Counted from the stretch's first letter, positions 12,001 to 18,000 are shown. The stretch: 64,000 nt of DNA from Escherichia coli (GCF_045037415.1 NZ_CP173438.1); one strand, 5' to 3'. Program-made: the numbers.

Positions 12001-15000
12001 AAGCGTAATTCAGGTCAATGTCACAATTAACCATTGTCACAATAAGGTTGAACGGATATTCTGAGCACGGACCACGTAATATTCAATACATTATTTGCTG
12101 CCGGGTTTTTCGTGAATCAACGTAATATGTCAATAATTAATTCCACGCCAGTGCGTGTTATTGCCATTGTAGGATGTGATGGTTCAGGTAAATCGACCCT
12201 CACGGCAAGCCTGGTAAATGAACTGGCAGCAACAATGCCAACAGAACACATTTATCTCGGGCAATCGTCCGGGCGAATTGGCGAATGGATTTCACAGCTC
12301 CCTGTTATTGGCGCACCTTTTGGGCGTTATCTGCGAAGTAAAGCGGCACATGTGCACGAAAAGCCCTCCACACCGCCTGGCAATATGACTGCGCTGGTTA
12401 TCTATCTGCTTTCCTGCTGGCGGGCGTATAAGTTTCGCAAAATGTTGTGTAAAAGCCAGCAAGGCTATCTGCTCATCACCGACCGCTACCCGCAGGTTGA
12501 AGTGCCGGGTTTTCGCTTTGATGGCCCGCAATTGGCAAAAACCACGGGCGGTAACGGTTGGATAAAAATGTTAAGGCAGCGCGAGCTGAAGCTGTACCAA
12601 TGGATGGCATCTTATTTGCCCGTATTGTTGATTCGTCTTGGCATTGATGAACAAACCGCGTTTGCGCGTAAACCTGACCACCAACTGGCGGCGTTACAGG
12701 AAAAAATCGCCGTTACGCCGCAACTGACATTTAATGGCGCCAGGATCCTTGAACTGGATGGTCGGCAACCAGCCGATGAAATTCTGCAAGCGTCACTACG
12801 CGCAATTCAAGCTGCGCTTTCCTGATCACCAAAATGGATAGGGGATGATTTAACGAATGGACGCACTACAAACACAAACTGTTAATAGTACAACCGCGCC
12901 GCAGCCCAACTACATTCCGGGGCTGATTGCGGTGGTCGGGTGTGATGGCACCGGTAAATCCACACTGACCACCGACCTCGTGAAATCGCTGCAACAACAC
13001 TGGCAAACCGAGCGGCGCTATCTGGGGCTGCTCTCGGGCGAAGACGGCGACAAAATCAAACGATTGCCGTTGGTTGGCGTCTGGCTCGAAAGGCGACTGG
13101 CGGCCAAATCATCGAAAACCCAAAGCATGAAAACCCAAAGCATGAAAACCAAATCTCCAGCGCTATGGGCGGCGGTGATTATGTACTGCTTCTCGCTGCG
13201 AAGAATGGCGAATCTACGCAAGGTTCAGCGACTGGCGCAAAGTGGCGTTCTGGTGGTCAGCGATCGCTTCCCGCAGGCTGAAATTTCGGGCTTTTATTAT
13301 GACGGACCGGGGATCGGCGTCGAACGTGCGACCGGGAAAATCAGCATGTTTCTGGCGCAGCGCGAACGGCGTTTATACCAAAAAATGGCGCAATACCGTC
13401 CTGAATTAATCATTCGTTTGGGGATTGATATTGATACTGCCATCTCCCGCAAGCCTGACCATGACTATGCCGAGCTGCAGGACAAAATCGGCGTCATGTC
13501 GACGATTGGCTATAACGGCACAAAAATTCTTGAGATTGATTCCAGAGCGCCCTACAGCGAAGTGCTGGAACAGGCACAGAAGGCGGTTTCTCTGGTTGCC
13601 ATCGTTTCTGACCGCCGAAGTTTAACTTAAGGCTGGCGGGATACTTTTTACTATCAACGATAAGGTCAGGCTGAATTGGCGGGTTTTAACATCAAACATT
13701 GGTTTGCAGATGGCGCGTTTCGCACCATTATTCGCAATAGCGCCTGGTTAGGCTCCAGTAATGTCGTGAGCGCTTTACTGGGTCTGTTGGCGCTCTCGTG
13801 TGCCGGTAAAGGGATGACGCCCGCCATGTTTGGCGTACTGGTGATTGTACAATCGTACGCCAAGTCGATCAGCGATTTTATTAAGTTTCAGATATGGCAG
13901 CTGGTGGTTCAGTACGGAACACCAGCATTAACCAACAATAATCCGCAGCAATTCCGCAATGTCGTCTCATTTTCCTTCTCGCTGGATATCGTCAGCGGCG
14001 CGGTGGCGATTGTCGGCGGCATTGCCTTACTCCCTTTTCTTTCCCATTCATTAGGTCTGGATGACCAAAGCTTTTGGCTGGCAGCGCTGTATTGCACGCT
14101 CATTCCTTCAATGGCTTCCTCCACGCCGACCGGCATTCTGCGTGCGGTAGATCGCTTCGATCTAATTGCTGTACAGCAAGCGACGAAACCTTTTCTGCGC
14201 GCAGCGGGGAGCGTCGTAGCCTGGTATTTTGACTTTGGTTTTGCGGGTTTTGTTATTGCCTGGTACGTGTCGAATCTGGTTGGCGGCACCATGTACTGGT
14301 GGTTTGCCGCGCGCGAATTACGCCGCAGAAATATCCATAACGCCTTCAAATTGAATCTGTTTGAGTCTGCCCGACACATTAAAGGCGCGTGGAGTTTTGT
14401 CTGGTCAACCAACATTGCCCACTCCATCTGGTCGGCGCGTAACTCGTGCAGCACAGTGCTGGTGGGGATCGTGTTAGGACCCGCTGCCGCCGGGTTATTT
14501 AAAATCGCCATGACATTCTTCGACGCCGCCGGAACGCCAGCGGGTTTACTGGGCAAAAGTTTTTACCCAGAGGTGATGCGTTTAGATCCGCGCACCACCA
14601 GACCGTGGTTGTTAGGCGTGAAGTCAGGTTTACTGGCGGGCGGAATTGGTATTCTGGTGGCGCTCGCGGTGTTGATCGTCGGCAAGCCGCTTATTTCGCT
14701 GGTGTTTGGCGTTAAGTATCTCGAAGCGTATGACCTGATTCAGGTGATGCTGGGCGCAATTGTGATTTCGATGCTGGGCTTCCCACAGGAGTCATTGCTA
14801 TTGATGGCGGGAAAACAGCGCGCTTTTCTCGTGGCGCAAACCATCGCCTCAATCGGCTACATCGTATTGCTGTTCATGTTCTGTCATCTGTTTGGCGTGC
14901 TGGGAGCAGCGTTTGCTTATTTCGGTGGGCAATGTCTGGATGTGGTGCTCTCGTTAATTCCGACCTTAAAGGCATTTTTTCAGCGCCATTCCTTGCTTTA

Positions 15001-18000
15001 TAACGCAGCCGGAGAGAAATCCTGATGATGAGAAAATATTTCCCGCTTGAGGCGAGCGAGCGTTTATTTGTTGCAGTTGAAGAAGATGATGTCGTTGATG
15101 CACAGGTCAGTTTGCCGCCGACTATCGCACTAAGTTGTACCACCGAAATCATCCATGATAATTACGCGTTATGCCTGCAATTCTGGCTCAATGGCGTCAA
15201 TCGCCAGGAGTTACTGCGTTTAATATGCAAACAGGCCAAAGGCGATGAGCTGACTGCTGATGAGCGCAAACAATTTAAATACATGCGAGCGCGCTACAAG
15301 CACCTGCGTTTTGCGCAACGGCTGTATTTAAAGAAGCATCAGGCCGGATTTTTATTCGGCAAAACGACCGTTTTTTTGGGGCGTTTTCAGGACGGTTTTC
15401 GTAACGGTAAGAAAAATATTGTGTCGTATTACGGCAACTTGTTACGGGTTTATTTAAGCTCTCCGGTCTGGTCGTTGGTGAACTATTCATTACGCCATAG
15501 CCAGTTAGAAAGCGTAAGCGGTTTTATTGCCTATCGGCAAAAGCAAATGCATACCCTGAAAGAGATAATTGCCAAACCGCGACTCACCGGCAGGGAATTT
15601 CATGATGTGCGAAAAATCATCAGCCAGCAGGTTTCTTATTACGACACCTTAAGATCGCTTGATCCTGAAAATAAAGAGGCGTTACAGATTTCCCGCTTCC
15701 TCGCCGCCATTAATGGCCTGATGGGGGATAAACACGACGACATGGTGGCGGATGATATGGAAAACCGCCAGTCGTATGATGCACCGGTGGCGCTGGATAG
15801 CGATATTCGCCAGCGCTTAGAGCTGCTGATTTCGCGTTTTCCGCTATAACCGGAGCAATGATGTCATCTCGTTTGATTATTGCGCTGATTATCATGCTCT
15901 TAGCCCAGGGTGTGCAGGCACACAATTTTGTCACTGGCAAAACGGTTACCCCCGTTTATATCCAGGAAGGCGGCGAGCTGCTTCTGAATAGCGACGACGA
16001 AATTCACTACCAAAAGTGGAACAGCACACAGCTGGCGGGAAAAGTCCGCATTATCCAGTATATCGCCGGGCGTAAGTCGGCGAAGAAAAAGAACTCACTG
16101 TTAATTAAAGCGGTTGAAGCGGCAAACTTTCCGCAGGATCGTTTTCAGCCCACCACCATTGTGAACACCGATGATGCCATCTTTGGTACTGGCTATTTTG
16201 TCGTTGGCAAAATCGAAAAAAATAAACGCCGCTATCCGTGGGCGCAATTCGTTATTGACGGCAATGGACTGGGACGCGTTGCCTGGCGGTTGCCGGAGCA
16301 GAGTTCAACCATTCTGGTGCTGAATAAAGACGGGCAAATTCAGTGGGCAAAGGACGGCAGCCTGACGCCGGAAGAGGTAGATCATGTCATTGCGCTGGCG
16401 CAGAAACTGATCAATGAATAAAAAATTCAAAGGATTGAGGGTGTTAGTGAGATGAAGCTGGTTGAACACTACATCATGCGTGGTACGCGCCGTCTGGTGC
16501 TGATTATCGTCGGTTTTCTGATCTTTATTTTCGCCAGCTACTCCGCACAGCGTTATCTGACCGAAGCGGCAAATGGGACCTTAGCTCTTGATGTTGTGCT
16601 GGATATCGTTTTCTACAAAGTGCTGATTGCACTGGAGATGTTGTTACCTGTTGGTCTGTATGTGTCAGTTGGCGTGACGCTAGGGCAGATGTATACCGAC
16701 TCGGAAATTACCGCTATCTCTGCGGCGGGGGGCAATCCGGGACGCTTGTACAAAGCCGTTCTTTATCTGGCGATACCGCTAAGTATTTTTGTCACCCTTC
16801 TGTCGATGTATGGTCGGCCGTGGGCTTATGCGCAGATTTATCAACTGGAGCAACAGTCGCAGTCGGAGCTGGATGTTCGCCAGTTGCGGGCAAAGAAATT
16901 TAACACTAACGATAACGGACGAATGATCCTTTCGCAGACGGTTGATCAGGATAATAATCGCCTGACTGACGCGCTGATTTATACTTCTACTGCCAATCGA
17001 ACCCGCATTTTCCGCGCCCGTTCGGTTGATGTGGTTGACCCATCACCTGAGAAACCGACCGTTATGTTGCATAACGGGACCGCCTATCTTCTCGATCATC
17101 AGGGGCGTGACGACAACGAACAGATCTACCGTAATCTGCAATTACATCTGAATCCGCTGGATCAAAGCCCTAACGTCAAACGCAAAGCAAAATCGGTCAC
17201 GGAGCTGGCGCGCTCAGCCTTTCCTGCCGATCATGCCGAACTGCAATGGCGACAAAGCCGTGGCCTGACAGCATTGTTGATGGCGCTGCTGGCCATTTCA
17301 TTAAGTCGGGTAAAACCGCGGCAAGGGCGATTTTCAACGTTATTGCCACTGACATTGCTGTTTGTTGCCATTTTTTATGGCGGCGACGTCTGCCGTACGC
17401 TGGTGGCTAACGGTGCGATTCCCCTCATTCCTGGTTTGTGGTTAGTACCCGGACTCATGCTAATGGGCCTGCTGATGCTGGTCGCACGCGACTTCTCTTT
17501 GCTGCAGAAATTTTCCCGATGAATGTTTTCAGTCGCTATTTAATCCGTCATCTCTTTCTCGGTTTTGCCGCCGCCGCAGGGCTATTGCTGCCGCTTTTTA
17601 CCACCTTCAACCTGATTAACGAACTGGATGATGTCAGCCCGGGCGGTTATCGCTGGACTCAGGCGGTGCTGGTGGTGCTGATGACCTTACCGCGTACACT
17701 GGTCGAACTTTCGCCGTTTATCGCATTATTGGGAGGGATTGTTGGCCTGGGGCAGTTATCGAAAAACAGTGAGCTTACCGCCATTCGCAGCACTGGGTTT
17801 TCTATCTTCCGTATTGCACTGGTGGCGCTGGTTGCCGGGATATTGTGGACTGTTTCGTTAGGCGCGATAGATGAGTGGGTGGCGTCGCCATTGCAGCAAC
17901 AGGCGCTGCAAATCAAATCGACTGCCACCGCGTTGGGGGAGGACGATGACATTACCGGCAATATGCTTTGGGCCAGGCGCGGTAATGAATTTGTGACGGT

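Follow-up and report, generated by a model that had tools for sequence, protein, structure and literature searches.

A CHAD-fold protein encoded in overlap with the flippase-like gene yghQ in the sphingolipid locus of Escherichia coli

Why does yghQ, a putative lipid flippase gene of Escherichia coli, share a nucleotide with the gene of a 274-residue protein, and what do the two of them do beside a set of genes for sphingolipid synthesis? We addressed this question in a stretch of E. coli DNA of 64,000 nucleotides (GCF_045037415.1, NZ_CP173438.1; one strand, 5' to 3'), which is called the window below and from whose first letter E. coli positions are counted. A first-pass annotation of the window had described a flippase-like YghQ translationally coupled to the 274-residue protein, followed by a YtfJ-like periplasmic protein and an LptFG-like pair, and had proposed that one transcript encodes flipping, periplasmic handling and extraction. 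We find that the 274-residue protein is a distant relative of the CHAD (conserved histidine alpha-helical) domains. Together with YghQ and the kinase-like proteins YghR, YghS and YghT it probably belongs to the head-group and export half of the sphingolipid locus.

The CHAD-fold partner of YghQ

The junction itself is as had been described. The A of the yghQ stop codon TGA is also the first letter of the ATG of the 274-residue open reading frame (ORF), with GGAG 10 nt upstream, and all of the coordinates are confirmed on the sequence (Table 1). Across 69 related loci the gap between the two genes has a median of -4 nt; it equals -4 in 31 and -1 in 10 of them (together 41 of 69). Because a -4 or -1 junction recurs over these loci, the overlap is not due to chance, and it is kept even where all other parts of the locus have moved. 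The 2.7-kb query used for the comparisons is 100% identical to the chromosome of E. coli strain 4/1-1, where the NCBI annotation gives yghQ the same coordinates.

YghQ matches PF01943 (E 5.8e-9) and PF13440 (E 3.1e-8), which places it in the MOP/Polysacc_synt family and supports its description as flippase-like. Its score against the curated MOP flippase equivalog of NCBIfam, NF007773, is 35.9 bits, below the cutoff of 273. Several hydrophobic segments are visible in a crude hydropathy scan. Judged by its family, YghQ is a putative lipid flippase that would translocate a lipid-linked substrate across the inner membrane.

The partner gene is conserved as a coding sequence. One search returned 344 homologues of the 274-residue protein, and an exhaustive search matched the representatives of 207 clusters (50% identity) at E up to 0.001; all but a few of these are 270-300 residues long. 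The ratio of nonsynonymous to synonymous substitution rates (dN/dS) is 0.06-0.07 in comparisons with other Escherichia species, Pseudocitrobacter and Citrobacter. The gene is under strong purifying selection, and the concern attached to the earlier description, namely that the ORF might not be coding in other strains, can be set aside.

A more sensitive comparison at the level of the family reveals what the protein is. An alignment of 82 relatives contains two internal repeats of the form [F/H]-xx-R-xxx-K-x-LR ... MG-xx-[Q/H]-D, in which R88, D123, H193 and R196 are invariant and K92, R95, H105, K197, H237 and D238 are at least 90% conserved. In both halves these residues are the signature positions of CHAD domains. 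When the family profile was run against all PDB sequences, the CHAD protein of Ricinus (6qv5) ranked first with an E-value of 0.0025, both halves being colinear and in register, and 6qv7 and 3e0s followed further down the ranking. A phmmer search of the PDB with the 274-residue protein gave noise only. CHAD is also the sole recurrent family in a Pfam scan of the relatives, with 22 of the 82 matching at E<=0.1 and three at E<=0.001 (best 2.5e-5). The AlphaFold2 model (predicted local distance difference test score, pLDDT, 97) is an all-helical domain of two related helical bundles. As the protein has neither a hydrophobic segment nor a signal peptide and its isoelectric point is 9.2, we place it in the cytoplasm. 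In short, it is a cytoplasmic, basic, all-helical protein with the CHAD fold and the CHAD signature motifs, a distant member of that group. The earlier statement that it has no recognisable motif therefore stands when the E. coli protein is scanned directly against Pfam and NCBIfam and falls for the fold and the signature motifs. CHAD domains are known to be modules that bind inorganic polyphosphate (bioRxiv 10.1101/567040).

Distant relatives of about 980 residues, from uncultured bacteria, consist of an APH/choline-kinase-type domain (motif HGDLKPxNLFFD), preceded by an N-terminal signal or transmembrane segment, and two CHAD-like domains. The domains were recognised by local phmmer and by reading of the motifs; an NCBIfam scan of the fusion proteins gave no matches. 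Since kinase and CHAD-like genes are linked in operons (see below) and APH-type fusions exist independently, a functional link of the CHAD-like domain to phosphotransfer has arisen at least twice. Some genomes (e.g. Luteibacter) have two CHAD-like genes in tandem, and a fused two-domain protein also occurs.

The conserved module and its sphingolipid setting

Relatives were sought in one genome per species with an 18-sequence alignment as the query, and thirteen proteins of the E. coli locus plus PitB were mapped onto all loci by tblastn. The comparison of the module covers 79 loci from alpha-, beta- and gammaproteobacteria. In the Enterobacterales the CHAD-like gene was found in Escherichia, Pseudocitrobacter, Citrobacter, Hafnia, Serratia, Sodalis, Pantoea, Erwinia, Rosenbergiella, Tatumella, Mangrovibacter and others, and in the Xanthomonadales in Luteibacter, Rhodanobacter and Dyella. 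It is also present in many Sphingomonadales, in Acetobacteraceae, in Carnimonas and in one betaproteobacterial metagenome-assembled genome. In most loci it lies directly 3' of yghQ on the same strand; a few copies stand alone or at the edge of a contig. The start/stop overlap is seen in Enterobacterales, Xanthomonadales and Sphingomonadales, and adjacency in some Acetobacteraceae; other Acetobacteraceae loci have the CHAD-like gene behind a yghT-like kinase gene instead of yghQ. Two or three paralogues of the thymidylate (dTMP) kinase superfamily almost always accompany the pair.

The surroundings of this module vary. In Sodalis, Rosenbergiella and some Erwinia, lptF2G2 is divergent upstream of yghQ, and in Serratia and Pantoea the spt operon is on the other side. 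In Sphingomonadales the unit reads kinase-kinase-(kinase)-yghQ-CHAD-like, and neither spt nor lpt genes occur within 10 kb of it. In Xanthomonadales the genes aasR-cerR-acpR-spt are inserted between yghR and yghQ, all on one strand. Of all the observations, this insertion ties the kinases, the flippase and the CHAD-like protein most directly to the sphingolipid pathway. Glycosyltransferase family 4 (GT4) genes neighbour the module in six loci. At the locus of Sphingobium wenxiniae (L084), a gene of 292 codons (10879-11757 of that locus) overlaps the stop of the CHAD-like gene by 4 nt. Its product carries PF24793 (GINT1_N), named after the plant glycosyl-inositol-phosphoceramide glycosyltransferase, and next to it are a GT4 gene and a VTT/DedA-family gene.

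YghR, YghS and YghT are paralogues with a mutual identity of 34-40%. The best match of their family profile is to solved thymidylate kinases (3hjn, E 3e-8), and all three contain a P-loop (GxDGxGKST), a DR[Y/F] motif and a basic lid-like RKPDH, aligned to the corresponding elements of Tmk. Our literature search found no functional data on them. In Sulfolobus acidocaldarius, two exapted dTMP-kinase paralogues form the heteromeric polyphosphate kinase PPK3, whose operon also encodes a CHAD protein and a PPX (Hofmann 2026, PMC12995831). Membership of the three E. coli proteins in the PPK3 clade is unsupported by the profile scores (E 3e-8 for 3hjn versus 0.002 for 2plr/5h70). They were also rejected as counterparts of the Caulobacter ceramide kinase CpgB, which is of the LCB5/diacylglycerol-kinase type. 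Within yghR, positions 13104-13150 hold a tandem repeat of 3.1 copies of a 15-bp unit that encodes KTQSM repeats, and the K-12-type allele is 15 nt shorter (759 versus 774 nt); hence, a loop of this kinase-like protein is polymorphic in length. The gene of the low-affinity phosphate transporter, pitB (9698-11197), adjoins yghT in Escherichia, Hafnia, Citrobacter and Pseudocitrobacter, which could be either coincidence or a functional link.

The LptFG-like pair downstream passes both curated NCBI cutoffs, as its earlier naming implied, with 316 bits for the LptF-like protein (TIGR04407, cutoff 230) and 306 for the LptG-like one (TIGR04408, cutoff 240). LptF2 aligns over its full length to solved LptF chains (E ~3e-20 to 5e-32), and the two genes overlap by 4 nt in 41 of 43 loci. 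They are encoded within the spt locus, as the end of lptG2 is only 34 nt from the stop of spt, and Spt scores 600 bits against its NCBIfam equivalog NF047599 (cutoff 500). With spt, acpR, aasR, cerR and an N-acyltransferase gene, the locus holds the full proteobacterial set for sphingolipid synthesis. The E. coli B proteins AasR, AcpR and Spt have been shown to be active, and yghO (ECD_02850) and cerR have been assigned (Padilla-Gomez et al., PMC9386255). Because the string converges on aasR-cerR-acpR-spt plus yghO, we take the pair to correspond to the sphingolipid transporter LptF2/LptG2, and by the same token its cargo is most likely a sphingolipid rather than lipopolysaccharide (LPS) or a polysaccharide.

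Experiments in Caulobacter back the extraction step that had been proposed for this pair. There, the loss of LptF2 and LptG2 is tolerated only if no anionic sphingolipid is made, and the two proteins form a complex that binds the housekeeping LptB (Uchendu, Isom and Klein 2026, bioRxiv 10.64898/2026.04.12.717747). The same preprint draws this locus for E. coli UTI89, confines LptC2 to Caulobacter and leaves the steps before and after extraction open. The Caulobacter sphingolipid locus (CC_1152-CC_1168) encodes LptF, LptG and LptC a second time, along with a 'potential flippase', CC_1166 (Olea-Ozuna 2024, PMC11324152). CC_1166 and YghQ fall in the same Pfam/InterPro family. CC_1167 of Caulobacter was considered as a counterpart of the CHAD-like protein and rejected, being TagF-like.

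The E. coli genes are listed in Table 1. From yghS to lptG2 they follow one another on one strand (yghS-yghR-yghQ-274 aa-ytfJ-like-lptF2-lptG2), with yghT divergent, and the successive gaps are 31, 45, -1, 8 (or 11), 30 and -4 nt. No strong intrinsic terminator was seen inside this string, the only strong hairpin being the palindrome at its end. A hairpin with a 6-bp stem and a T-rich stretch at 15044-15058, 20 nt inside the 274-residue ORF, was dismissed as a terminator, being weak and located in coding sequence. The 20 terminator-like matches of the region are within ~2 standard deviations of shuffled sequence, and promoter-like matches number 9 against 10.6 expected from shuffling. Independent promoters or terminators between the genes, which would have argued for separate transcripts, were thus looked for and did not stand out. 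An Rfam scan of 11000-24500 matched zero RNA families. The single transcript proposed earlier is borne out in its layout (one strand, tiny gaps, no strong terminator inside), from which we infer co-transcription. The unit would be driven from the yghT/yghS divergent region and probably starts at yghS, and would therefore also encode dTMP-kinase-like proteins.

Table 1. Features of the yghT-yghO region; positions are those of the window
Feature	Position	Strand	Description
yghT	11246-11938	-	dTMP-kinase-superfamily P-loop paralogue, divergent from yghS; weak TIGR00041 match (E 7e-6), below cutoff
Promoter-like site TTGTCA-17-TATTCT	12034-12062	+	In the yghT/yghS divergent intergenic region; consensus match, candidate operon promoter
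yghS	12112-12825	+	dTMP-kinase-superfamily paralogue; probably first gene of the string
yghR	12857-13630	+	Third dTMP-kinase-superfamily paralogue
yghQ, full-length	13676-15025	+	TTG start, 449 aa; MOP/Polysacc_synt putative lipid flippase
Coupling junction	15011-15030	+	GGAG 15011-15014; TGA 15023-15025; ATG 15025-15027; second ATG 15028-15030
CHAD-like gene, 274 aa	15025-15849	+	Cytoplasmic CHAD-fold protein, conserved partner of yghQ
ytfJ-like	15858-16421	+	YtfJ-family periplasmic protein; likely start 15861; signal peptide to ~15920
lptF2	16452-17522	+	Paralogue of the LPS-export permease LptF (TIGR04407, 316 bits)
lptG2	17519-18598	+	LptG paralogue (TIGR04408, 306 bits); 4-nt overlap with lptF2
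GC-rich palindrome, 16-bp stem	18596-18630	.	Occupies exactly the 34 nt that separate the convergent stops of lptG2 and spt; likely bidirectional terminator
spt	18633-19805	-	Sphingolipid synthesis operon, convergent with lptG2
acpR	19805-20053	-	Sphingolipid synthesis operon; acyl carrier protein gene
cerR	20085-20999	-	Sphingolipid synthesis operon; NAD-dependent reductase gene
aasR	20996-22684	-	Sphingolipid synthesis operon; fatty acyl-AMP ligase gene
yghO ('aca')	23088-24230	+	N-acyltransferase, candidate bacterial ceramide synthase; annotated in strain 4/1-1, assigned as ECD_02850 in PMC9386255

The ytfJ-like gene had been placed 8 bp downstream of the CHAD-like gene, with a signal peptide in its product, and both points are confirmed. 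The TAA of the CHAD-like gene (15847-15849) is followed by 8 nt (CCGGAGCA) and then by ATGATG (15858-15863). The GGAG at 15852-15855 stands 5 nt before the second ATG (15861), a better-suited distance than the 2 nt to the first, and the second is therefore the likelier start; it gives a protein of 186 residues and a gap of 11 nt and is also the choice of PGAP. Some database entries, on 120 contigs, have an N-terminally shorter version of 153 residues. The 8-nt spacing is specific to Escherichia, the median elsewhere being 37 nt with values of up to 541.

The protein scores 216 bits against TIGR01626 (cutoff 151.1). A Sec-type signal, MMSSRLIIALIIMLLAQGVQA with HNF following the cleavage point, was read from the sequence and hydropathy, and the conserved mature end begins at H22, which is invariant; A21, N23 and F24 are at least 90% conserved. 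The protein has a thioredoxin fold and no cysteine. At the place where oxidoreductases carry CXXC, residues 69-79 (16062-16094) form an invariant basic loop, I69-AGR-x-SAKKKN79, in a low-confidence part of the model; it is plausible as a candidate binding site for an anion or head group. The thioredoxin fold, which is not the beta-jellyroll of OstA-like proteins, led us to reject the YtfJ-like protein as an LptA/LptC-type bridge, and the 274-residue protein was rejected as an LptC2/LptA substitute, likewise on its fold. Linkage of the ytfJ-like gene and of lptF2G2 to the module is found in Enterobacterales only. With a cysteine-free thioredoxin fold and so narrow a linkage, the 'periplasmic handling' ascribed to the YtfJ-like protein is unsupported, and we regard it as an Enterobacterales-specific periplasmic accessory.

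Of 5426 complete E. coli genomes, 4128 match the 2.7-kb query over 80% of its length or more; the ORFs in these are intact with 95-100% identity. About 24% of complete genomes are without an intact copy. Insertion sequences (IS) are responsible for the damaged loci. In K-12 lineages, IS5 cuts yghQ at nt 1069 and removes everything through to yghO, and the literature on K-12 yghQ concerns this truncated remnant. In strain CUVET23-CCU17, an IS1 lies after nt 222 of the CHAD-like gene.

A proposed role in head-group formation and export

On balance, we consider it probable that these genes make up the half of the E. coli sphingolipid locus concerned with the head group and with export, in which kinases, a CHAD-like protein and a flippase form one module. 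The lipid product and the mechanism that we infer are as follows. According to the literature, the convergent operon and YghO make the ceramide backbone. On the cytoplasmic side of the membrane, YghR, YghS and YghT would phosphorylate either a head group derived from ceramide or a precursor of that head group. Translational coupling would keep the CHAD-like protein in a fixed ratio to YghQ; the protein would dock on the cytoplasmic face of the flippase and bind a phosphate-rich ligand through its conserved Arg/Lys/His motifs. YghQ would then flip the lipid to the periplasmic leaflet, from which LptF2/G2, powered by the housekeeping LptB, would extract it into the Lpt bridge to the outer membrane.

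Several observations weigh against this proposal. Direct Pfam and NCBIfam scans do not assign the E. coli 274-residue protein to PF05235, and Foldseek found no significant match for it in the PDB, so that the CHAD relationship would have escaped Foldseek alone. Some distant relatives in the CHAD-like family have signal peptides and lie in unrelated gene contexts, and in a few loci the CHAD-like gene stands alone. The kinase profile matches the catalytic homologue of PPK3 from S. tokodaii (2plr/5h70) with an E-value of 0.002 and over the P-loop only, which is no closer than Tmk. As the cited papers describe it, the Caulobacter locus lacks the kinase and CHAD-like modules, and its ceramide kinase is of the unrelated LCB5 type. 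In strain E41, an IS1 has removed yghS through most of the ytfJ-like gene and left lptF2G2 and the spt operon in place. As these remain, the kinase/flippase/CHAD-like module must be dispensable at least in the E41 background. More generally, IS1 and IS5 have eroded the locus repeatedly and independently, with different end points. Our literature searches turned up neither a native E. coli sphingolipid nor expression, lipid or interaction data for the E. coli string.

The IS5 and IS1 deletions with differing end points, in K-12 and in other strains, the roughly 24% of complete genomes without an intact copy and the lack of a reported native product would also fit a decaying, unexpressed remnant in which the tight junctions are inherited rather than functional. 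However, dN/dS is 0.06-0.07 both within Escherichia and against neighbouring genera, the ORFs are intact at 95-100% identity in 4128 genomes, and the enzymes of E. coli B are catalytically active; decay is therefore a very unlikely account of the locus. The string might instead handle a glycan- or polysaccharide-type lipid-linked cargo and merely lie beside the sphingolipid genes, the 274-residue protein being a generic accessory. Members of PF01943 are usually undecaprenyl-diphosphate-oligosaccharide flippases, NCBI names YghQ a 'lipopolysaccharide biosynthesis protein', and there are the GT4 neighbours in six loci. However, the linkage to spt/acpR/cerR/aasR survives several rearrangements in Enterobacterales, the Xanthomonadales have their spt genes between yghR and yghQ on one strand, and the taxa found include the sphingolipid producers Sphingomonadales and Acetobacteraceae. 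Furthermore, it is GINT1_N that the gene overlapping the CHAD-like stop in Sphingobium carries, and the E. coli locus has no initiating glycosyl-phosphate transferase. We consider a glycan cargo quite unlikely.

Alternatively, the module could be centred on polyphosphate, with YghR, YghS and YghT forming a heteromeric PPK3-like kinase and the CHAD-like protein holding polyphosphate, which would serve as the phosphoryl donor for making the head group; or else an oligo- or polyphosphate chain would be built on the lipid itself, for export by YghQ and LptF2G2. As in the PPK3 operon, several dTMP-kinase paralogues stand beside a CHAD gene, the P-loop, DR[Y/F] and lid-like RKPDH are kept in all three of them, and pitB adjoins the locus in four genera. 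The CHAD-like protein also retains the Arg/Lys/His motifs of the CHAD domains, which are polyphosphate-binding modules (bioRxiv 10.1101/567040). On the other hand, the kinases have no specific sequence affinity to the PPK3 catalytic homologue, the locus has no ppx, sixA or pst genes, the adjacency of pitB may be coincidental, and no phosphoanhydride-bearing sphingolipid has been described. E. coli, moreover, already has PPK1. This alternative is unlikely, if somewhat less so than a glycan cargo.

An extension of our proposal would combine these elements into a membrane-associated PPK3-like machine, in which the kinases and the CHAD-fold protein build a pyro-, oligo- or polyphosphate head group on ceramide, or use polyphosphate as the donor, and YghQ and LptF2G2 export the product. 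MOP flippases normally handle lipid diphosphates, and Tmk-type kinases phosphorylate phosphomonoesters. A phosphoanhydride is suggested because the MOP flippase, the Tmk-type kinases and the CHAD fold each point that way, but we give such a machine only an outside chance. If it existed, its product would be a highly anionic bacterial sphingolipid of a class not known before, and most E. coli, Serratia and Erwinia, along with Sphingomonadales and acetic acid bacteria, would have it.

That the locus is a sphingolipid locus and that LptF2G2 is a transporter is already known. What has apparently not been described is the CHAD-fold identity of the orphan protein, the near-universal overlap of its gene with that of a MOP flippase and its companionship with dTMP-kinase-like proteins, nor, apparently, that Enterobacterales, Xanthomonadales, Sphingomonadales and Acetobacteraceae have this module in place of the Cpg route of Caulobacter. 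Our literature search found no paper with both 'CHAD domain' and 'sphingolipid'. Outside Caulobacter, the passage of bacterial sphingolipids across the inner membrane and the addition of their head groups are little understood. For the flipping and head-group steps, a testable conserved gene set can now be named, consisting of YghR/S/T, YghQ and the CHAD-fold partner, and CHAD domains, so far tied to polyphosphate metabolism, are extended to a membrane-lipid context. The locus is present in about three quarters of the complete E. coli genomes, BL21 and UTI89 among them. Should its lipid product be anionic and surface-exposed, it may affect susceptibility to polymyxin and antiseptics as well as host recognition in clinical E. 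coli, for which K-12 cannot serve as a model.

Comparison with known systems

The YtfJ-like protein resembles the YtfJ/HI0045 family (TIGR01626, PF09695) in its full-length match, its signal peptide and its thioredoxin-like fold, and differs in being encoded inside the sphingolipid locus of Enterobacterales. LptF2 and LptG2 similarly match the LptF and LptG of the LPS extractor LptB2FGC over their full length and pass the equivalog cutoffs. In contrast to these, they are second copies that have diverged (E ~1e-25 to E. coli LptF) and lie in a sphingolipid locus, with a cargo that is presumed to be sphingolipid and an ATPase that is presumably borrowed.

The 274-residue protein shares with CHAD domains (PF05235; 6qv5, 3e0s, 6rn5 PptA; Lorenzo-Orts 2019) the two-fold repeat with H/F-xx-R-xxx-K/R-x-LR and LG/MG-xx-H/Q-D, and it too is basic and encoded beside kinases. 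However, the E. coli sequence is under the Pfam threshold, with an identity of ~8-17% to solved CHADs, and its gene is not beside a ppk, ppx or CYTH gene but is coupled to that of a membrane flippase in a lipid locus. The PPK3 operon is comparable in that a CHAD protein is encoded there alongside thymidylate-kinase-superfamily paralogues that are distinct from the housekeeping Tmk. There are two such paralogues there and three here, the E. coli locus has no PPX, SixA or Pst genes and only pitB adjacent to it, and its context is sphingolipid synthesis and export rather than polyphosphate turnover. As there is no special sequence affinity and no ppx or sixA gene, the comparison with PPK3 is meant as an analogy and does not place the kinases in that family.

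A parallel in setting is the Caulobacter locus, where paralogues of lptF and lptG and a Polysacc_synt flippase gene likewise lie among spt, acpR, aasR, cerR and an N-acyltransferase gene, and where a second lptB gene is likewise missing. The E. coli locus is without LptC2, the LCB5-type ceramide kinase CpgB, CpgA, CpgC and the TagF-like gene, and has instead three dTMP-kinase-like paralogues, a CHAD-fold protein whose gene overlaps that of the flippase, and a YtfJ-family protein.

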